The notes below the pieces were generated by a model. It was not told the DNA's origin. It ran no database searches and worked only from the letters and a program-made list of their open reading frames with translations. From the IMG/VR virus record IMGVR_UViG_2563366831_000011, positions 1 through 50,364 of that record: 50,364 bases of DNA. One strand, given 5' to 3'. This document shows positions 4,081-43,270 of this stretch, in pieces. Position 1 is the stretch's first letter; every line of letters starts with the position of its first letter. Position numbers and translations under genes: made by a program. The stretch comes from a virus (Duplodnaviria > Heunggongvirae > Uroviricota > Caudoviricetes).

Positions 4081-4758
4081 TCAGTTGCCGTACTGGTCTC
4101 TATAGTATGATTTTATTTGTGAAATTTCTGATGTTGTCTTCGAAGTTGAAAAGATAAGAACTTCCGCATAGTTAACGTTATTCGCGGCAGTCGCCGCCAG
4201 CGTTAGCGGAGCATTCTGGTAGGTAATAGACGATGCCGCGGCTACGGTTATGGTCGCGTCGTTGACATACACCGTCTCGGTGTCAGTTATCGGGTCGTAG
4301 TTCACGATCACAAGATCAATGCCTGTGGATAAGGTCACCCCTCCCTGCTGGGTTGATGACCCTGTTTTGTAATAGTAGAGCTTGTTATCTGTCTGTGCCT
4401 GTAGCCGCAGATGGGGCCCCGCGATTAAAAAGGTAGCTTGTGTGGTGTTATCTCGCTTGAAAGCGAAGGCGTAGCAATAGCCGTTTTCCGCTGTAGCAGG
4501 GTAGACATTCTCAGATGTGACGCCGCCATTTGCGGTTAGCGCACTTTTCATCGTCTTGATTCCGTTCAGCGTCGACGCTGAGATTGCAGAACCTAATGCA
4601 ATATTCATATCGCCAGCGCGGTCTGCAAGAGTTGATACTCGCCAGTCAAAATAGTGCGAAGGGTTCCACCTGGCTGTTTTATCATCGCGCTCGGTATAGG
4701 TGGACTGAATACCGCTATTAACGGCGTTTGGAACCTGTAAAAAAGTACAAATTGCCAT
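4081..4758 (-). CDS. LamG/concanavalin-A-like lectin-fold protein (accessory receptor-binding candidate)
   Basis: 225 aa, beta-rich. The C-terminal signature NYAEVLIFSTSKTTSEISQIKSYY resembles the LamG-domain ending (..v.iy.raLs..Ei..l). It sits between fibre and spike genes. Confidence 0.5.
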   Translation of the reverse strand: MAICTFLQVPNAVNSGIQSTYTERDDKTARWNPSHYFDWRVSTLADRAGDMNIALGSAISASTLNGIKTMKSALTANGGVTSENVYPATAENGYCYAFAFKRDNTTQATFLIAGPHLRLQAQTDNKLYYYKTGSSTQQGGVTLSTGIDLVIVNYDPITDTETVYVNDATITVAAASSITYQNAPLTLAATAANNVNYAEVLIFSTSKTTSEISQIKSYYRDQYGN

Positions 4759-4769
4759 GGGTGTATTCC

Positions 4770-6899
4770 TTATTTTCTTAGGGATTGTACGGCGTAGTTC
4801 AGCAGTACTCGTTTTGCCTGATACGCGCCGATAATTCTGGCACCTCTGGCGTTAGGATGTGGGTCTGCGGGATTTGTTGTCGAATATGCATAGCCGTTCT
4901 GAAATGCAAAATTAGAATTCTTTATGAGGTCTCTTACATTGAATCCCAGCATTTTATAGGTTGACTGGATATTATCAAAAACGCTCTCACGCTTAATGTG
5001 ATTGTCGCTATACCAGCGCTCAAGGAAAATAGGCAATTTAGGAATCGCTGATTGAACACGTTCAACTATTGCACTATATCCGTTGAGAAAATCTGTGTCA
5101 GAAAGAGCATAATCATTTTCCCCAAGATTAATAAACGCGACATCCGGCTGAAAATATTGTATCCAGTATTGCTGATAAGACGCTGTTTGATTCAGGTAAT
5201 ACTGAAATGTTGCACCTCCTCTTGCGTAACGAATGACTCTGACGCCGCCAGCAGAGTTGATGCAATTGAAGCTGATCAGGGCAGGATAGCCTGCCTGACC
5301 AGATGCGGGAGGTTCAATTTCCAGGGCGAATCGACCTGAGTTCGGCCCCAGACCCTCCACCCTAACGATTGTTATCGTTTCGCTACCCTCAGGGTTATTC
5401 GGTATTGTGGCTGTTTGCCATTCCCCTGAACCCGCCGGGCCGGTGGAACCATCGTCATTCCTGTCGGTTGCACGGAACCGGAACTGACTAGATGTTCCGG
5501 CGTCTCCGGTACCAGTAAAACCGACCTCGACAACGTCGTGCTGATAAATGGGGTTGCTGCGGGCCGAATCTTTTACGCGAAAAAACAGGTTAGTTCGTCC
5601 AGCCCACGGTACTAGAGCAAAACTCAATGGTGCACATTTTTTCCCATAGGTCTGGTTATCGACCCAGCCAGTATAAACTAACTCCATATTCAGCAGATCT
5701 CTTGACGCTGTGTTATCGTTTGACGGTGCAAAATAACCGATACCCCCATGCCCAAGATTTGCTGCAAAAAGGCTGTACATAGCGTCAATGGCACCCAATC
5801 CCCCTGTGCCTGCAGTGAGAGAGTCACCCTGACAAAAAATAGTTAGATATCCTCCTGTGTATGCCCTTTCCTGCATCGCGATCATGTAATCAAGAAGACC
5901 AGTCTCTGGCAAGCTTGATGCAGCCTGAGAACCTCCTGACCCCGGCAATAGCAATTGGTCGTCGCTTCCGAGAATAGCGAATGGCGAAGATGAGTAGCCC
6001 TTTAAAATAGAACATCCGGCATCTTCTAAAGAATCAGTAGTTAAAAAAGATGCCATCTGGTTATCGCTTCCCATTACAGATAATGGCTTGCCTGGGATAC
6101 CGTAACCATATTTGATATCTGCCCCAGCATCGCGCATTCTGTCGCTATCATTGCCGTATTCAAGGACCTGATAATCAGTGCCTATGATTACGAATTTTTC
6201 ATCTCCGTATCCACTAAGAAATCTTACCCCTGCAAATATCCACGTTGAGGGCATCTGACGTCCGGTAGGCTGCAGCGTTCCGTCAACGTTTACTACCTCA
6301 ATAGCGAGCGTGTCGTCATTGTCAGTGCGATAATAAGCATTTGACCCAACAGGAATATTTCCAGCGTCTGCATCTGCCTGCGCCGCAGCCAGCGTCGGAA
6401 ACTCGCGGATTGTCCCTGTTATGGCCGCTGTACCCGGCTGCTTTGCCTGCAATACGGCCACGCCTGCTTTGTTTTGATACTGCCATGCAGCAGAAAGCGC
6501 ATCTGGACCTTGGGCTACCCAGAATGACTGCCCTTCAGTCGTTGCGGCCAGCCCGGCAATAGTGCCATCAGGATCGCTTGAGGTTTTATAGAATGTGAAC
6601 TTATTCCGTGCATATTCAGAGGCATCATTCTTGTACTCTTCAGCCTGCGCAGCTGAACCTGCGGCTGCCGTTGCCGATTCGGATGAGGCAGCGGCCGAAG
6701 TAGCAGCACTTTGTTCGGCCGTTTCTGCTGAGTTCTTGGCAGCTTCAGCCGCAGTTGCAGCATTAATCGCTTCCTGAGTGGTGGCGCTAATATCCTGATA
6801 GCCCTGCTGGACCTCGATCAGGTACTGCTTTGCCTCTGCGGCACTCACGGACGCCTCTGCCGCGAACTGTGCCGTTTGCTGTGTGTCGGTAGTCGCCAT
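4770..6899 (-). CDS. Tail spike/fibre with C-terminal SGNH (GDSL) esterase domain
   Basis: The N-terminus is an Ala-rich coiled-coil fibre shaft. The C-terminal half carries block I CQGDSLTAG, block III INLGENDY and block V DPHPNARG, all SGNH hydrolase hallmarks. ATG at 6899 follows AGGA; a GTG at 6920 is an alternative start. Confidence 0.7.
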   Translation of the reverse strand: MATTDTQQTAQFAAEASVSAAEAKQYLIEVQQGYQDISATTQEAINAATAAEAAKNSAETAEQSAATSAAASSESATAAAGSAAQAEEYKNDASEYARNKFTFYKTSSDPDGTIAGLAATTEGQSFWVAQGPDALSAAWQYQNKAGVAVLQAKQPGTAAITGTIREFPTLAAAQADADAGNIPVGSNAYYRTDNDDTLAIEVVNVDGTLQPTGRQMPSTWIFAGVRFLSGYGDEKFVIIGTDYQVLEYGNDSDRMRDAGADIKYGYGIPGKPLSVMGSDNQMASFLTTDSLEDAGCSILKGYSSSPFAILGSDDQLLLPGSGGSQAASSLPETGLLDYMIAMQERAYTGGYLTIFCQGDSLTAGTGGLGAIDAMYSLFAANLGHGGIGYFAPSNDNTASRDLLNMELVYTGWVDNQTYGKKCAPLSFALVPWAGRTNLFFRVKDSARSNPIYQHDVVEVGFTGTGDAGTSSQFRFRATDRNDDGSTGPAGSGEWQTATIPNNPEGSETITIVRVEGLGPNSGRFALEIEPPASGQAGYPALISFNCINSAGGVRVIRYARGGATFQYYLNQTASYQQYWIQYFQPDVAFINLGENDYALSDTDFLNGYSAIVERVQSAIPKLPIFLERWYSDNHIKRESVFDNIQSTYKMLGFNVRDLIKNSNFAFQNGYAYSTTNPADPHPNARGARIIGAYQAKRVLLNYAVQSLRK

Positions 6900-6913
6900 A
6901 ATTTTTCCTGTTA

Positions 6914-8209
6914 TTACCACTCGATATGCACAATGCCATCGGCGCCATCGCCGGACGGGTAAGCTATTCCGCTGAAATCAATATCGTAAGCACCACCACC
7001 GCCAGAGCCTGCTGCTTTCCCTTTCACACCGCCGGTTGCGCCGCTGCGTCCTCCGCCACCCCAGAACGAAGCCCCGCCAGAACCGGTAAGCATGTTGGTC
7101 GCAGCCTGGCCGTCATGACCAGTGCCACCCTGAATGTTGATATCGCCACCTGACGCAACACCGCCATCACCACCGGCGCTGTTCACGATGCTGGCCTTGT
7201 TGGATTTTTTTCCACCGCGGCCGAAGATGATCCCACCCAAAGAAGAGTCACCGCCGTCATTGCCCGATACGGCACCTAAAACCGCTGCACCGCCTTTGCC
7301 GACGACAACGGATAAGGTCGTTCCCGGGACAACGTCCAGCCAGCCTAAAGCTGTACCGCCAGCCCCGCCACCGCCACCGCTATAGGACTCACTTGAGGAG
7401 GACGCCTGACAACCGCTTCCGGATCCGCCTGCACCCGTCACGGTGTAACGAATGCGCGTCACCCCTGCAGGCACGACGAACGAATACGTCCCGTTGACTG
7501 CGTAAGCGATGTTTCCGTGAGGCTTCGAAAGGGAGGTTACGTTGGTTCCATCGGAGTGGATTTGCGTAACCGTTCCTGGCTTGCTGACAACTGTTGCGCC
7601 CGCCGCCCTGGTACTTAACTGAACGTAGTAAGCGCTGCCGGTGCAGTTATTTTCGATGGTCCAGTCTTTCACCCATGGAGGGAGATATAGGATCCGGTTA
7701 CCAGTTAGCGCGCCGGTGAGAATTAGCCGTGGGTTAGCAGCCTGCAGATCGGTGGCGTTAACGTTAGCCGTCGATATTGAAATGCTGGCCGCTCCGCATC
7801 CCCATGAAGGCATCCAGCCAGATGCCGTTGCATCGGTTTTTTCCGGTGCGGTGTTATTGGAGTCAATGGTGTTGAGCCACGACACCGAGTAATCGCTGGA
7901 AGGGATCACCGCACCTTTAGGGTAGCCTGAAATTGCTGTTCTGAAATCTGCGTTAAAGGGGTACCCCATCCCGGCATCCGACCATTGCAGGCGAGTGTAA
8001 AGATCATTAAAAATGCCGTTAAAGTCCTGACCCTTTGGCGGCTTACCGCCGGCAGAAAGTGCGATACGGGTCAGCGGCGGGAAACCGGAATCCATAGCCG
8101 CCAGGCCGTCGGCCAGCGTTTCAGAGGTGGAATTGACCGGGATCGTGTTTTTGTCGCCGCTCGCAGAAAATACAACCGTCAGACGTGACGGTATGGCTGA
8201 ATTATTCAA
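6914..8209 (-). CDS. Tail fibre protein 1 with glycine-rich C-terminal module
   Basis: 431 aa. The N-terminus (GFPPLTRIALSAGGKPPKGQDFNGIFNDL...GYPKGA) resembles the baseplate-attachment region of myovirus fibres. The C-terminal roughly 195 aa is Gly-rich and paralogous to 2410-3441. Confidence 0.75.
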   Translation of the reverse strand: MNNSAIPSRLTVVFSASGDKNTIPVNSTSETLADGLAAMDSGFPPLTRIALSAGGKPPKGQDFNGIFNDLYTRLQWSDAGMGYPFNADFRTAISGYPKGAVIPSSDYSVSWLNTIDSNNTAPEKTDATASGWMPSWGCGAASISISTANVNATDLQAANPRLILTGALTGNRILYLPPWVKDWTIENNCTGSAYYVQLSTRAAGATVVSKPGTVTQIHSDGTNVTSLSKPHGNIAYAVNGTYSFVVPAGVTRIRYTVTGAGGSGSGCQASSSSESYSGGGGGAGGTALGWLDVVPGTTLSVVVGKGGAAVLGAVSGNDGGDSSLGGIIFGRGGKKSNKASIVNSAGGDGGVASGGDINIQGGTGHDGQAATNMLTGSGGASFWGGGGRSGATGGVKGKAAGSGGGGAYDIDFSGIAYPSGDGADGIVHIEW

Positions 8210-39876: not shown

Positions 39877-40155
39877 TCAGGCCTCAAAACTGTTGCAGCA
39901 GTCTTGAGGCTTTTCTTTTGTCAGCACCATGGCTACTTTCTTTGCCAGCTCTGCTAATTCCTCGTCTTCAACCCCCCACTCCAGCACAGCCAGAAGCATG
40001 GCCATCTTTGGGATAAAGCTGTCTTTCCATCGCGAAATTTGCGATTCATTAATCCCTAATGCATCAGCAACCTTTCGCTGACCACGTACAGCAATTCGAT
40101 TCAGGATGTTGCTTGTAATTGCATTCGCTTTCTTGCGAGTACTTGTAAGTTGCAT
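39877..40155 (-). CDS. cII: CII transcriptional activator
   Basis: 92 aa. ...SQISRWKDSFIPKMAMLLAVLEWGVEDEELAELAKKV parallels lambda CII SQISRWKRDWIPKFSMLLAVLEWGV. Confidence 0.85.
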   Translation of the reverse strand: MQLTSTRKKANAITSNILNRIAVRGQRKVADALGINESQISRWKDSFIPKMAMLLAVLEWGVEDEELAELAKKVAMVLTKEKPQDCCNSFEA

Positions 40156-40234
40156 ATGTAAGTATTTCCTTAGATAACAATTGATTGAATGTATGCAAAT
40201 AAATGCATACACCATAGGTGTGGTTTAATTTGAT

Positions 40235-40266
40235 GCCCTTTTTCAGGGCGGGGATGGGTAAGAGCG
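40235..40266 (-). promoter_or_regulatory. nutR (boxA CGCTCTTAC, boxB GCCCTGAAAAAGGGC)
   Basis: Read on the minus strand between cro and cII. It matches lambda nutR as I recall it. Confidence 0.8.
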
Positions 40267-40273
40267 GGGTTAT

Positions 40274-40483
<210 letters not shown>

Positions 40484-40500
40484 TTAGTACATGCAACTAT

Positions 40501-40564
40501 TATCACCGCCAGAGGTAAAATAGTCAACACGCACGGTGTTAGATATTTATCCCTTGCGGTGATA
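40501..40564. promoter_or_regulatory. Lambda right operator OR1-OR2-OR3 with pR/pRM
   Basis: OR1 is TATCACCGCCAGAGGTA (40501-40517). OR2 is CAACACGCACGGTGTTA (40525-40541). OR3 is TATCCCTTGCGGTGATA (40548-40564). Confidence 0.9.
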
Positions 40565-40571
40565 GATTTAA

Positions 40572-41288
<717 letters not shown>

Positions 41289-41306
41289 TAGGAAGTAAGT
41301 TTTATG

Positions 41307-41335
41307 TTGACGGCACAGTCAACTTGGCATAGATT
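41307..41335 (+). promoter_or_regulatory. Promoter-like element TTGACG-17 nt-TAGATT downstream of cI
   Basis: The -35 is at 41307-41312 and the -10 at 41330-41335. The -35 lies within the inverted repeat GTTGAC-ggcaca-GTCAAC. Confidence 0.4.
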
Positions 41336-41345
41336 AATTAAACCA

Positions 41346-41406
41346 AGCCCAGCCCCGTTCGCAGACAATTGTTAATATCTGCATAACGGCTCTGGGCTAT
41401 TTTTTT
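41346..41406 (+). terminator. Long imperfect hairpin followed by a T-tract, 10 nt before the NYN-gene ATG (terminator/attenuator-like leader)
   Basis: Paired blocks are GCCCAG/CTGGGC, CCGTT/AACGG and GCAGA/TCTGC, with loop CAATTGTTAATA. These are followed by ATTTTTTT (41399-41406). Confidence 0.5.
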
Positions 41407-41415
41407 GGGACTCTT

Positions 41416-42273
41416 ATGAAGAAAGCAGCAATTTTAATTGATGCGGGTTTTTTCATGCAGCGTGTTCATGCTACGCATCGTAAACACTTCGCCGAGCATG
41501 AACTGACTGCGCAATGCATAATGAAAGTAATATGGTCAATGGTTCTTTCCCATCTTAATGGAAAACGTCAATCACAAGAACGTAGGGAACCGCTTGAGCT
41601 TTATAGAATTTACTTCTATGACTGTCCACCACTCGACATTCAAACACGCCTTCCACTTCCTGAGCATGGCAATAAGACGCCTGGTCGCAAGAATTTCAAA
41701 CTCGAAAAATCATATATTCTGAGAACGGAGCTGCATGAAGAGTTAAGAAAAACTCGAAAAACAGCCTTAAGATTAGGGAATCTTGTTGATAATAAGCGAT
41801 GGCAACTAACTACATTCTCCCTTGATGCTCTGATGAAAGGAACGAAAAAATGGGATGAACTGACAAATGATGATTTTTACTATGACATCAAACAAAAACA
41901 AGTTGATATCAAGCTAGGGATGGATATCACGACTTTAGCTTATGAAAAACTTGTTGATGTAATTGTCCTTGTTGCTGGGGACTCAGACTTTGTGCCTGCC
42001 GCCAAACACGCCAGAATTAAAGGTATTGATTTTATTCTTGATCCACTAAGACAGAATGTTACCCCATCACTGTCAGAGCACATTGATGGAGTTCAGTCAT
42101 ACAGCTTGATATCAGGACTTGCCGATGCTTTACATGTTGAGCCAGACCCGGCACCTGACTGGTGGGAAGATCGAAAAAAAGGCAAGCCTAGAGGAAAAAA
42201 CAATAGCGGTAAACGCAGGTATGGAAACACTCAAGCTGAGTCTGCAAAGAAACATCAAAGAAATAAACGATAA
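41416..42273 (+). CDS. NYN/LabA-like (PIN-like) predicted ribonuclease with a Lys/Arg-rich C-terminal tail, in the rexAB position
   Basis: 285 aa. NYN-type motifs are KAAILIDAGFF (N-terminal Asp), DIKLGMDI and VIVLVAGDSDFVPAAKHARIKGIDFIL. The C-terminus is KKGKPRGKNNSGKRRYGNTQAESAKKHQRNKR. It is AT-rich relative to the lambda flanks. Confidence 0.6.
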   Translation: MKKAAILIDAGFFMQRVHATHRKHFAEHELTAQCIMKVIWSMVLSHLNGKRQSQERREPLELYRIYFYDCPPLDIQTRLPLPEHGNKTPGRKNFKLEKSYILRTELHEELRKTRKTALRLGNLVDNKRWQLTTFSLDALMKGTKKWDELTNDDFYYDIKQKQVDIKLGMDITTLAYEKLVDVIVLVAGDSDFVPAAKHARIKGIDFILDPLRQNVTPSLSEHIDGVQSYSLISGLADALHVEPDPAPDWWEDRKKGKPRGKNNSGKRRYGNTQAESAKKHQRNKR

Positions 42274-42282
42274 TCCCATCAA

Positions 42283-42309
42283 CCCGGCCACCGAGCCGGG
42301 TTTTCTTTG
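42283..42309 (+). terminator. Rho-independent terminator after the NYN gene (tImm position)
   Basis: CCCGGC-CACCGA-GCCGGG-TTTTCTTTG. Confidence 0.8.
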
Positions 42310-42463
42310 CCTCACGATCGCCCCACCTAAAAACACATAACCAATTGTATTTATTTTAAAATTAATAGGTGCAACTCACTAAACAACGCAATTCTGATCT
42401 CTCGATCACCTCCCAAGCCACACAACCCTGCAAAAAATAAATCTATATAAAAAACATACAGAT

Positions 42464-42526
42464 AACCATCTGCGGTGATAAATTATCTCTGGCGGTGTTG
42501 ACACAAATACCACTAGCGGTGATACT
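42464..42526 (+). promoter_or_regulatory. Lambda left operator OL3-OL2-OL1 with pL
   Basis: OL3 is AACCATCTGCGGTGATA (42464-42480). OL2 is TATCTCTGGCGGTGTTG (42484-42500). The -35 TTGACA is at 42498-42503. OL1 is TACCACTAGCGGTGATA (42508-42524). The -10 GATACT is at 42521-42526. Confidence 0.9.
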
Positions 42527-42565
42527 AAACACATCAGCAGGACGTACTAACCACCATGAAGGTGA

Positions 42566-42596
42566 CGCTCTTAAAAATTAAGCCCTGAAGAAGGGC
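42566..42596 (+). promoter_or_regulatory. nutL (boxA CGCTCTTAA, boxB GCCCTGAAGAAGGGC)
   Basis: Matches lambda nutL as I recall it. Confidence 0.85.
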
Positions 42597-42767
42597 AGCA
42601 TTCAAAGCAGAAGGCTTTGGGGTGTGGTGAAGGGTTCATGGATGGGAATATGTCGCACGTAAAGCGGCGAGGCCTGCGGAACTATTGCCGAATTGAAGTC
42701 GGCCGAAGCAGGTCGAAATGGGTCTCCCACCTACCACACCACCAAAGCTAACTGACAGGAGATGAAC

Positions 42768-42896
42768 ATGAAACATAACGAACACTTTATGGCTTGGTTG
42801 AAGTCAATGCGTGATGAAGCAAAGCGTCCTGAAACAACAATGACGCGAATCGTGGAAATCTTCTCCTGCATCAGCAAGTACGCAACCTGCCAATAA
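42768..42896 (+). CDS. 42-aa ORF inserted between the N leader/RBS and N (below the ORF-track cutoff)
   Basis: It uses the ACAGGAG SD that serves N in lambda. The product is MKHNEHFMAWLKSMRDEAKRPETTMTRIVEIFSCISKYATCQ. It is followed by the hairpin GGCCCC-gctga-GGGGCC. Confidence 0.45.
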   Translation: MKHNEHFMAWLKSMRDEAKRPETTMTRIVEIFSCISKYATCQ

Positions 42897-42937
42897 CTGT
42901 CGGCCCCGCTGAGGGGCCATTTATCTAAGGATGATAT

Positions 42938-43270
42938 ATGGACTCTCAAACACGCCGCCGCGAACGTCGCGCAGAGAAACAGGCTCAATGGAAAGCAGCA
43001 AATCCCCTGTTGGTTGGGGTAAGCGCAAAACCAGTTAACCGCCCTATTCTCTCGCTGAATCGCAAACCGAAATCACGAGTAGAAAGCGCACTGAATCCGA
43101 TAGACCTTACGGTGCTGGCTGAATACCACGAACAGATTGAAAGCAACCTGCAGCGTATTGAGCGCAAGAATCAGCGCACATGGTACAGCAAGCCACGCAG
43201 TGAAATGGGGGTGACTTGCTCAGGCCGCCAGAAGCAACGCGGAAAATCAATTCCAGCTTATTACGATTGA
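42938..43270 (+). CDS. N: Antiterminator N (lambda-like, divergent C-terminus)
   Basis: 110 aa. MDSQTRRRERRAEKQAQWKAANPLLVGVSAKPVNRPILSLNRKPKSRVESALNPIDLTVLAEYH matches lambda N, including the Arg-rich motif. Confidence 0.9.
   Translation: MDSQTRRRERRAEKQAQWKAANPLLVGVSAKPVNRPILSLNRKPKSRVESALNPIDLTVLAEYHEQIESNLQRIERKNQRTWYSKPRSEMGVTCSGRQKQRGKSIPAYYD

Follow-up and report, generated by a model that had tools for sequence, protein, structure and literature searches.

A cassette carrying a predicted NYN-type ribonuclease gene replaces rexAB in the otherwise lambda-type immunity region of the viral sequence IMGVR_UViG_2563366831_000011 (50,364 nucleotides (nt); this whole stretch is called the window here, and coordinates refer to it unless a locus is named). 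The gene is preceded by a terminator-shaped hairpin that is conserved, with covarying stems, upstream of homologues across phyla. We consider it a serious though still tentative possibility that the cassette is a two-part RNA-protein module, in which the leader RNA would restrain the ribonuclease and the enzyme would be freed during infection. Both the leader RNA partner and the two-part architecture appear to be previously undescribed. A conserved RNA partner offers the first testable mechanism for this NYN subfamily, which comprises 7034 protein clusters at E values up to 1e-3 and has relatives confirmed in at least 592 genome stretches. If the RNA indeed neutralises the nuclease, this principle would extend past effectors of the ToxN and AbiF type to the PIN-like superfamily, and a motif outside Rfam would be added to the known RNAs.

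The NYN cassette occupies the position of rexAB

Read on its plus strand, the window follows the leftward direction of lambda, with cro (on the minus strand), cI, an open reading frame (ORF) of 285 amino acids, OL/pL and N. Based on BLAST comparison with lambda, window 40153-41292 corresponds to lambda 38362-37223 with 97.8% identity. Homology is lost 4 nt past the cI stop (41292) and is regained at 42281, which is the position of the rexB stop. From there, 42281-42626 corresponds to lambda 35826-35489 (89.9%, including OL1-3 and nutL) and 42938-43194 to lambda N (97.3%); the lambda segment displaced by the cassette is 37222-35827. A sequence-only reading of this DNA had listed the lambda-type cro, cI, OL/pL and N, the ORF, a promoter and a hairpin, and had assigned the ORF to the rexAB slot; we find every one of these features where it was placed, and the NYN gene lies exactly at the position of lambda rexAB. 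The same reading described a strong terminator behind the gene. This terminator is real, but it is lambda sequence and lies outside the incoming cassette, because homology to lambda 35826 onward begins exactly there.

The lambda slot between cI and OL/pL is expressed in lysogens, and the sequence-only reading regarded the position behind the repressor as a recurrent site for cargo. Our survey of this slot confirmed that it is a cargo hot-spot: in four other prophages, of which three have a lambda-type cI and the fourth a related repressor, it is filled by four different cassettes of two genes each. In these E. coli prophages with a lambda-like cI (loci L156-L159), the interval between cI and N thus has at least four unrelated cassettes of hypothetical-protein genes, one with DUF1828, which are further candidates for exclusion genes that are expressed in lysogens.

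The NYN gene resembles rexAB in occupying the same slot in the orientation of cI with the same terminator sequence behind it. However, the NYN protein is related to the Rex proteins neither in sequence nor in fold. RexAB is a two-protein exclusion system that is co-transcribed with cI from pRM, whereas the NYN gene has its own promoter and is set apart from cI by the terminator-shaped leader. The NYN gene is probably expressed in lysogens, with a role in exclusion or abortive infection.

The protein has a NYN fold and invariant acidic residues

The GC content of the ORF is 40.7%, compared to 46.2% for cI and 49.8% for the window, which bears out its description as AT-rich. Its product matches the Pfam NYN family PF01936 above the cutoff (E 6.8e-9, 36.8 bits against a cutoff of 24.2), with only residues 158-205 aligned, and the Pfam search of the protein returned neither ToxN nor any other family besides NYN. 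In NCBIfam, TIGR00288 is matched with an E value of 5.1e-7, far below that model's own cutoff. PHROG 5783, to which no function is assigned, matches the protein end to end. A sequence search of solved structures yielded nothing useful. An AlphaFold model built from 37 homologues (predicted local distance difference test score 86.6) has a PIN-like alpha/beta fold that superimposes on solved NYN domains, in agreement with the NYN/PIN-like nuclease proposed in the sequence-only reading. The Lys/Arg-rich C-terminal tail that had been proposed along with it is likewise evident: 14 of the last 40 residues are K or R, and the tail is predicted to be disordered.

Eight residues (D9, D69, D164, D170, D189, D191, H222 and D224) are invariant in 40 homologues with identities down to 39%. 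NYN nucleases bind metal with four acidic residues, for which the invariant D9, D69, D164, D170, D189 and D191 are candidate active-site residues here. Since these Asp and His residues are invariant across homologues, the protein looks catalytically competent. In its fold and its acidic active-site residues it is like the NYN/LabA PIN nucleases (PF01936; 2qip and MARF1, 5yaa), but this subfamily differs in an insertion of ~70 residues and a C-terminal extension. The bacterial PF01936 proteins are numerous and functionally unstudied, their nuclease function included, according to the 2017 classification of PIN-like domains (PMC5499597).

A covarying leader RNA precedes NYN homologues across phyla

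We examined 80 homologue loci, taken as one genome per species from Proteobacteria, Bacteroidota, Acidobacteria, Firmicutes, a Treponema (Spirochaetes), Verrucomicrobia and others. Approximately 70 of the 77 distinct loci have, 7-60 nt upstream of the start codon, a hairpin of 50-80 nt with a U-rich tract behind it. The widespread form consists of an outer stem of ~8 G-C-rich pairs, an internal loop, an inner stem of 7-9 pairs and a variable loop. The internal loop has near-invariant unpaired bases, which are G-U-A-n-G on its 5' strand and C-n-G-A on its 3' strand. Strand 1 and part of strand 2 seem similar to the AGUA/GAA consensus of bulged-G (loop E, sarcin-ricin) modules.

The pairing in this RNA is supported by covariation. 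RNAalifold applied to a MAFFT alignment of the distant leaders gave only 7 pairs, with the inner stem misaligned; the remedy was to supply the structure by hand and then to realign with a covariance model. When 76 sequences were aligned with the model as guide, 89% of cells were paired and compensatory changes were present in 14 of 15 pairs, counted per sequence and not per evolutionary event, compared to 29-61% paired and 6-10 compensatory pairs in slid controls. A covariance model of the widespread form (R1) found 43 matches with E <1e-10 in 869 kb, all of them directly upstream of NYN homologues.

The hairpin in the window belongs to a diverged, three-stem subtype that also occurs in enterobacteria, Pseudomonas, Acinetobacter and Pasteurella and has a conserved AAU..UUA loop. 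It has 17 base pairs (bp), and the minimum free energy upon folding of 41336-41430 is -26.5 kcal/mol; taken as a single sequence, it has a z-score of only -2.2. Aligning 15 leaders of this subtype with MAFFT gives 94.9% of cells paired and compensatory changes in 12 of the 17 pairs; slid controls have 27-45% paired and 0-2 compensatory pairs. The corresponding covariance model (R2) gives 61-85 bits at NYN leaders only, with a strong strand bias (82 bits on the plus strand of the gene versus 29 on the minus strand). The training sequences of R2 match by construction, while L018, L024, the second copy in L008 and the O157 locus lie outside the training set. No second copy of the leader RNA was found in the window with R2, where the other matches are weak generic terminators.

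These results alter one part of the sequence-only reading, which took the cassette to be a single-gene module: a conserved and covarying leader RNA accompanies the gene across phyla. We find no match to this RNA in Rfam 15 at E values up to 10, either in window 41200-42500 or in L076 4860-5010, and no family reaches its gathering score at the leader in 13 loci. In full-text searches of the literature, we found no paper on this protein or its RNA, nor one that links NYN to an RNA motif or an RNA antitoxin, and neither NYN nor LabA appears in the main text of a 2017 catalogue of 224 RNA motifs. Likewise, no RNA partner has been described for other NYN/LabA nucleases or for the NYN defence candidate HEC-09.

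The two RNA subtypes accompany proteins of different length. The proteins paired with the three-stem RNA have a median of 275 amino acids and a Lys/Arg-rich tail, and those paired with the widespread RNA have a median of 235 amino acids. This tracking of protein length by RNA subtype is a weak pointer to contact between RNA and protein and may reflect shared ancestry.

Two other identities were tried for the hairpin and rejected. The promoter and U-tract, together with the G-U pairs and strand-specific scores, speak against an integron attC-like DNA site. Mimicry of tRNA or ribosomal RNA, judged by eye only, was dropped as unsupported.

The RNA partner is not universal, because a family member on a plasmid of the pCC31 type is without the hairpin. 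In this locus of Campylobacter coli pCC31 (L160, 2300-3184) there is a promoter-like sequence with no recognisable leader hairpin. Members of the family are carried by 136 Campylobacter records of conjugative plasmids of the pTet/pCC31 type. The label 'Cpp15' on the homologue in Burkholderia phage phiE202 was presumably borrowed from these plasmids.

Promoter, hairpin, U-tract and gene are found in a fixed order

The promoter TTGACG-17-TAGATT and the hairpin with its T-tract are both present as described in the sequence-only reading. The promoter match by itself is not above chance, since the region has 3 promoter-like sites compared to 5.2 expected from shuffles. Promoter and hairpin are above chance only through their conservation upstream of homologues. 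Indeed, a promoter that matches at least 9 of 12 consensus positions occurs in 34 of 73 distinct homologous upstream regions, and in 31 of these 34 the distance from the end of the -10 box to the first base of the hairpin is 7-14 nt (10 nt in the window). In Bacteroidota loci a TAnnTTTG-type element is seen at the same place, judged by eye from printed upstream sequences.

Given this spacing, transcription should start at the base of the hairpin, 0-6 nt ahead of the outer stem. The arrangement predicts that the main product is a free RNA of ~60-65 nt and that read-through yields the mRNA. The hairpin does not sequester the ribosome-binding site, and thus the leader, if it exerts control, would do so at the level of transcription or of the protein. 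With the predicted start at the foot of the hairpin, there would be no upstream RNA to form an antiterminator, and this lack of room makes a classical riboswitch or attenuator less likely.

The hairpin in the window lies 58 nt after the cI stop, and cI transcripts would also be expected to end there. If the hairpin were nothing other than a terminator of the gene upstream, here cI, its conservation would be due to co-movement with the cassette and the promoter match to chance. The position of the hairpin, where it would end pRM transcripts, fits this explanation, as do the promoter match that does not exceed shuffles and the modest z-score of the hairpin. Nevertheless, we consider it extremely improbable: the motif stands behind unrelated genes, often on the opposite strand, in many phyla and with protein identity down to 38%; its stems covary while its loop bases are fixed; and promoters appropriate to each phylum are found at a fixed distance, including (by eye) TAnnTTTG in Bacteroidota.

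A second explanation is that the RNA is a small riboswitch whose aptamer doubles as the terminator and which would turn the nuclease gene on or off in response to a metabolite or nucleotide signal. The hairpin is compact, its stems covary, and it has a U-tract and a single conserved internal loop; some small OFF-switches have such a shape, and since the motif is absent from Rfam it could be a new class. However, the -10 box lies 7-14 nt before the outer stem with no antiterminator RNA upstream, and, judging from promoter positions, we find no aptamer with a competing antiterminator fold of the kind that defines a transcription-attenuating riboswitch. Moreover, the outer stem of ~8 G-C-rich pairs should fold without a ligand, and the subtypes differ in their conserved unpaired bases and track the C-terminal tails of the proteins, for which a protein partner is a better fit. 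We regard a riboswitch as very unlikely.

The sequence-only reading had also speculated that the antitermination of an incoming phage might open the leader. This idea is unsupported, because the same unit occurs in chromosomal, plasmid and BREX settings of unrelated phyla, where antitermination of the lambda N type has no bearing. The apparent transcript start at the foot of the hairpin is a further point against it.

A perfect palindrome, GTTGAC-N6-GTCAAC, overlaps the -35 box and could be an operator for a DNA-binding factor. TTGAC-N6(9)-GTCAA recurs in 7 of the 81 distinct regions upstream of homologues, from distant taxa, compared to a background of 0.0008 per 70 nt; the carriers are E. 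coli, Tatumella, Yersinia, Edwardsiella, P. syringae, a Lysobacteraceae genome and P. wadenswilerensis.

Comparison with RNA-controlled toxins and abortive infection systems

The order of elements in the cassette is that of known RNA-controlled effectors. In the AbiF/RCd22 system of the Clostridioides difficile prophage phi027, a promoter, a conserved RNA motif and a Rho-independent terminator precede a toxic effector; transcription yields chiefly the short RNA, by which the toxin is neutralised in cis as well as in trans (PMC12373285). The cassette resembles AbiF/RCd22 in the order and spacing of promoter, RNA motif, terminator and effector gene, which form one unit, and in being a prophage-borne single effector. 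It differs in the protein, which is of the Abi_2/AbiD/F family (HEPN/Cas13-like) in AbiF/RCd22 and NYN/PIN-like here, and in the RNA, which has two copies of the Rfam abiF motif and a separate terminator in AbiF/RCd22, while here the hairpin is itself the terminator.

In type III toxin-antitoxin systems, the terminator fixes the ratio of antitoxic RNA to toxin transcript (PMC3401426). These systems (ToxIN, CptIN and TenpIN) likewise have a promoter, a non-coding RNA, a terminator and an endoribonuclease gene in that order; they occur in phages, plasmids and chromosomes, and several known ones act in abortive infection. As described for this type (Blower et al. 2012, PMC3401426), the cassette has a palindromic terminator directly before the gene and -35/-10 elements at the start of the RNA. 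In contrast to the cassette, type III systems have tandem arrays of 34-36 nt repeats that are processed by the toxin, and their toxins have the ToxN fold rather than NYN.

With these parallels in mind, the module could operate as follows. Its own constitutive promoter would fire 0-6 nt before the conserved hairpin. The outer stem and U-tract would act as an intrinsic terminator, such that most transcripts would stop as a free RNA of ~60-65 nt and a minority would read through into the NYN ribonuclease gene. The leader RNA would restrain the nuclease in cis through termination and probably also in trans, where its conserved unpaired bases would mediate binding to the protein. In the lysogen the module would be poised, and the RNA brake would be lost, for example, when an infecting phage shuts off host transcription. 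The freed ribonuclease, toxic on this reading, would then cut RNA, such that the infection is aborted or the phage excluded.

Several results weigh against such a module. The nearest neighbours of the NYN gene in 75 diverse genomes are mostly housekeeping genes, with 4 integrases and few defence proteins, and enrichment in defence islands is not demonstrated from the nearest neighbours of these 75 loci. The covariation counts are taken over sequences, not over evolutionary events. R1 gives the window RNA only 12 bits (E about 1), and the homology of the window subtype to the widespread form is suggested by an identical architecture and by intermediates, namely Proteus chromosomal copies at ~20 bits. 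Approximately 5-7 of the 77 loci are without the motif, as is Campylobacter pCC31. The abiF motif RF03085 has no match in the leader (Rfam search of window 41200-42500 and of L076 4860-5010), and Pfam assigns the protein to NYN only, not to Abi_2/AbiD/F. Tandem Repeats Finder (minimum score 30) detects no tandem repeats in 41200-42460, and there is no room for a repeat array because the -10 box is only 10 nt from the hairpin; nor does the protein have a ToxN/CptN/TenpN fold, its fold being NYN/PIN-like. PADLOC, in line with the lack of a named system in the sequence-only reading, returned weak domain-level matches only. The better one is to HEC-09 (E 2e-4, 19 bits), in which residues 155-200 align to model positions 98-143 of 203, such that only 46 residues are aligned rather than the full length; the other is to a generic NYN model (E 1.4e-3). 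HEC-09 is a NYN protein that was proposed as a defence ribonuclease from its genomic context; the only NYN defence candidate to have been tested, it gave no protection from any of the phages used.

The same order of elements suits pure attenuation equally well. The leader might act in cis only, as an attenuator that limits how much ribonuclease is made or as an autoregulatory site whose 5' hairpin the enzyme binds or cuts, and the ribonuclease might be a factor in RNA processing or regulation for the prophage or host, with no part as a toxin or defence effector. Feedback of this sort on the enzyme's own mRNA is known from RNase III, RNase E and Regnase-1, and the prevalence of housekeeping genes among the neighbours in the 75 genomes would be in keeping with such a role. 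NYN proteins of the LabA type have been tied to regulatory roles (PMC5499597), and in AbiF/RCd22 the cis effect on transcription alone is 17-fold (PMC12373285). However, a plain attenuator needs no invariant unpaired bases from Firmicutes to Proteobacteria, and the patchy spread, the absence of synteny and the placement in prophages, plasmids and a BREX system are typical of conflict genes. A role in cis alone is therefore somewhat doubtful in our view, and we continue to favour an RNA that restrains the nuclease.

A broader proposal is that the NYN gene and its leader represent an undescribed, phylum-spanning class of RNA-protein toxin-antitoxin or abortive infection systems, with a PIN-like ribonuclease as the toxin and a single terminator-embedded hairpin as its restraint, found in phage and plasmid slots that are expressed in lysogens, such as the rexAB position of lambda. 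We hold this to be possible, with more reservation than for the module in the window. Within such a class, the conserved unpaired bases of the hairpin (5' GUA-n-G and 3' C-n-GA) may form a module like loop E or the sarcin-ricin loop.

The gene is solitary, mobile and placed in accessory slots

No conserved neighbour gene was found among the nearest ORFs in the 75 genomes. Where it is readable, the setting is an accessory-gene slot. The NYN gene directly follows the repressor in E. coli phages, and a CI/LexA-type repressor in Proteus phage Brookers and a Tatumella genome. It lies between a toxin-antitoxin pair and the integrase in Burkholderia phage phiE202, between repressor and integrase in Streptococcus phage Javan84, between terminase and coat genes in Moraxella phage Mcat4, between Q and holin in an Edwardsiella prophage, and at the end of a prophage, near the integrase, in P. 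syringae. A chromosomal copy in Proteus is solitary, beside glmS. In a gammaproteobacterial metagenome-assembled genome (L090, 1316-9295), the gene and its RNA motif (59.8 bits) lie between BrxC and PglX of a type I BREX system, whose flanking genes are full-length PADLOC matches with E = 0. The family is present in 169 plasmid records, of which 129 are conjugative, and the RNA motif is retained on a Xanthomonas plasmid. The NYN gene is thus both solitary and mobile.

A pattern scan of viral contigs gave 59 matches, which is about the number expected by chance (estimated by hand), and only 12 were confirmed by the model; the NYN gene follows the motif in 8 of these 12. High-scoring motifs without a NYN gene were seen in two contigs. 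In one (L099, 9215-10181), a RelA/SpoT gene of the small-alarmone-synthetase type begins 250 nt further on and has its own promoter. In the other (L120, 9252-10811), a truncated ToxN-like ORF on the opposite strand is followed by an integrase. The swapped genes after the motif are consistent with a slot in which toxic effectors interchange.

Settings of this kind also suit an addiction element that stabilises its own prophage or plasmid and has no direct role against other phages. This explanation is in agreement with a solitary nuclease gene that has an RNA partner, with the 169 plasmid records and their 129 conjugative members, with the proximity to integrases at prophage ends, and with the leader being kept beside a truncated gene in ~200 genomes, mostly O157:H7 (see below). 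On the other hand, stabilisation does not preclude abortive infection in known type III systems, the solitary Proteus copy beside glmS has nothing obvious to stabilise, one copy is inside a BREX system, and in two viral contigs the motif is followed by a RelA/SpoT-type gene or a ToxN-like fragment. We judge addiction alone to be unlikely, and retain the RNA-restrained ribonuclease with a role in infection as the reading that we prefer.

The cassette is widespread in lambdoid phages and E. coli

Databases already contain the cassette sequence, with its gene uncharacterised. Phages ev099 and 2B8 carry it at 99.7-99.9% identity and E212 at 98.9%, and in ev099 the gene is annotated as a NYN domain-containing protein. 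Approximately 48 records of Stx2a-converting phages carry the cassette. Among 5426 complete E. coli genomes, the leader is present in 275, in which the gene is full-length in 74 and truncated in ~200 (mostly O157:H7), and the cI allele of the window (at least 99% identical) is present in 274. In comparison, rexA is found in 99 of the 5426 genomes. In nature, the cI-NYN module is at least as common as cI-rexAB, and the textbook lambda immunity region is not the typical one. The module is intact in the Stx2a phage records and truncated in most O157:H7 genomes, which could be relevant to exclusion between phages in these pathogens.

The cassette moves as a unit with its leader, as judged from Stx2a phage L008 (LC616031): because the same cassette (41270-42402, 97.8% identity) stands there beside a different repressor, the whole appears to be mobile. 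In L008 (3603-3629, 3639-3980, 3982-5101 and 5936-8374) an extra DUF3024 gene lies between the repressor and the NYN cassette, and is flanked by two copies of the last ~20-27 nt of lambda cI. This short sequence from the end of cI suggests a recombination joint. Farther on in L008 there is an insertion sequence element (5936-7149), and beyond it a second, degenerate copy of the cassette, in which the leader is kept and ~645 bp of the gene are lost.

O157:H7 ATCC 35150 (L154, 2482-5453) has a decayed lambda-immunity prophage beside thrW, with the NYN gene cut after approximately codon 116. Many O157:H7 genomes retain cro, a lambda-type cI, the intact leader and only the first ~116 NYN codons, which is effectively an orphan leader beside a dead nuclease gene.

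Some apparent pseudogenes, in which the gene is split in RefSeq, proved to be an annotation artefact, the ORFs being intact. In two RefSeq E. coli loci (L002, 4128-4985, and L155, 428-1285), an incomplete PIN-domain or hypothetical protein and a shorter NYN protein are annotated, while the ORF is identical to that of ev099 and differs from the window only by H84P. Annotation-based searches would under-count the intact gene because RefSeq splits the intact ORF.

Other features of the window and of homologous loci

The coordinates of the features in the immunity region are collected in Table 1.

Table 1. Features of the immunity region and cassette, in window coordinates
Feature	Position	Strand	Remarks
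cro	40274-40474	minus	Lambda-type
cI repressor gene (lambda immunity)	40575-41288	plus	97.8% identity to lambda over cII-cro-cI
Cassette substituting for the cI-rexA spacer, rexA and rexB	41293-42280	plus	988 bp, non-homologous to lambda
Palindrome GTTGAC-N6-GTCAAC	41306-41323		Overlaps the -35 box; possible operator
Sigma-70-type promoter	-35 TTGACG 41307-41312; -10 TAGATT 41330-41335	plus	17-nt spacer; 9/12 match to consensus
Leader RNA hairpin, CAAUUGUUAAUA	41346-41398	plus	Three stacked stems of 7+5+5 bp, 12-nt loop
A+U7 tract	41399-41406	plus	Intrinsic-terminator shape after the hairpin; ends 9 nt before the ATG; read from sequence
Weak Shine-Dalgarno-like GGGA	41407-41410	plus	5 nt before the ATG, past the terminator; read from sequence
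NYN/LabA-like PIN-type predicted ribonuclease, 285 amino acids	41416-42273	plus	Inserted subdomain; disordered Lys/Arg-rich C-terminal tail
Intrinsic terminator	42281-42302	plus	Just past the rexB stop; ends the immunity transcript; 8 pairs, 6 G-C, T-rich tail (terminator scan)

The interval between nutL and N (42627-42937) is ~310 nt long, compared to ~130 nt in lambda. It contains an ORF of 44 amino acids (42762-42896) without a Pfam match, followed by a G-C hairpin (42902-42918). Just before this ORF there is a 28-nt copy of the sequence upstream of lambda N (42735-42762, corresponding to lambda 35394-35367). Sequence 42620-42762 is common in 933W-type and other lambdoid phages; the part with the 44-amino-acid ORF has no full-length match in the phage collection and is absent from ev099.

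In Moraxella phage Mcat4 (L004), the sequence directly downstream of the NYN homologue (4283-4470) matches two Rfam families at gathering score, isrK with 61.9 bits and C4 antisense RNA with 71.3 bits. Both isrK and C4 are RNAs of the phage immunity and antitermination type.

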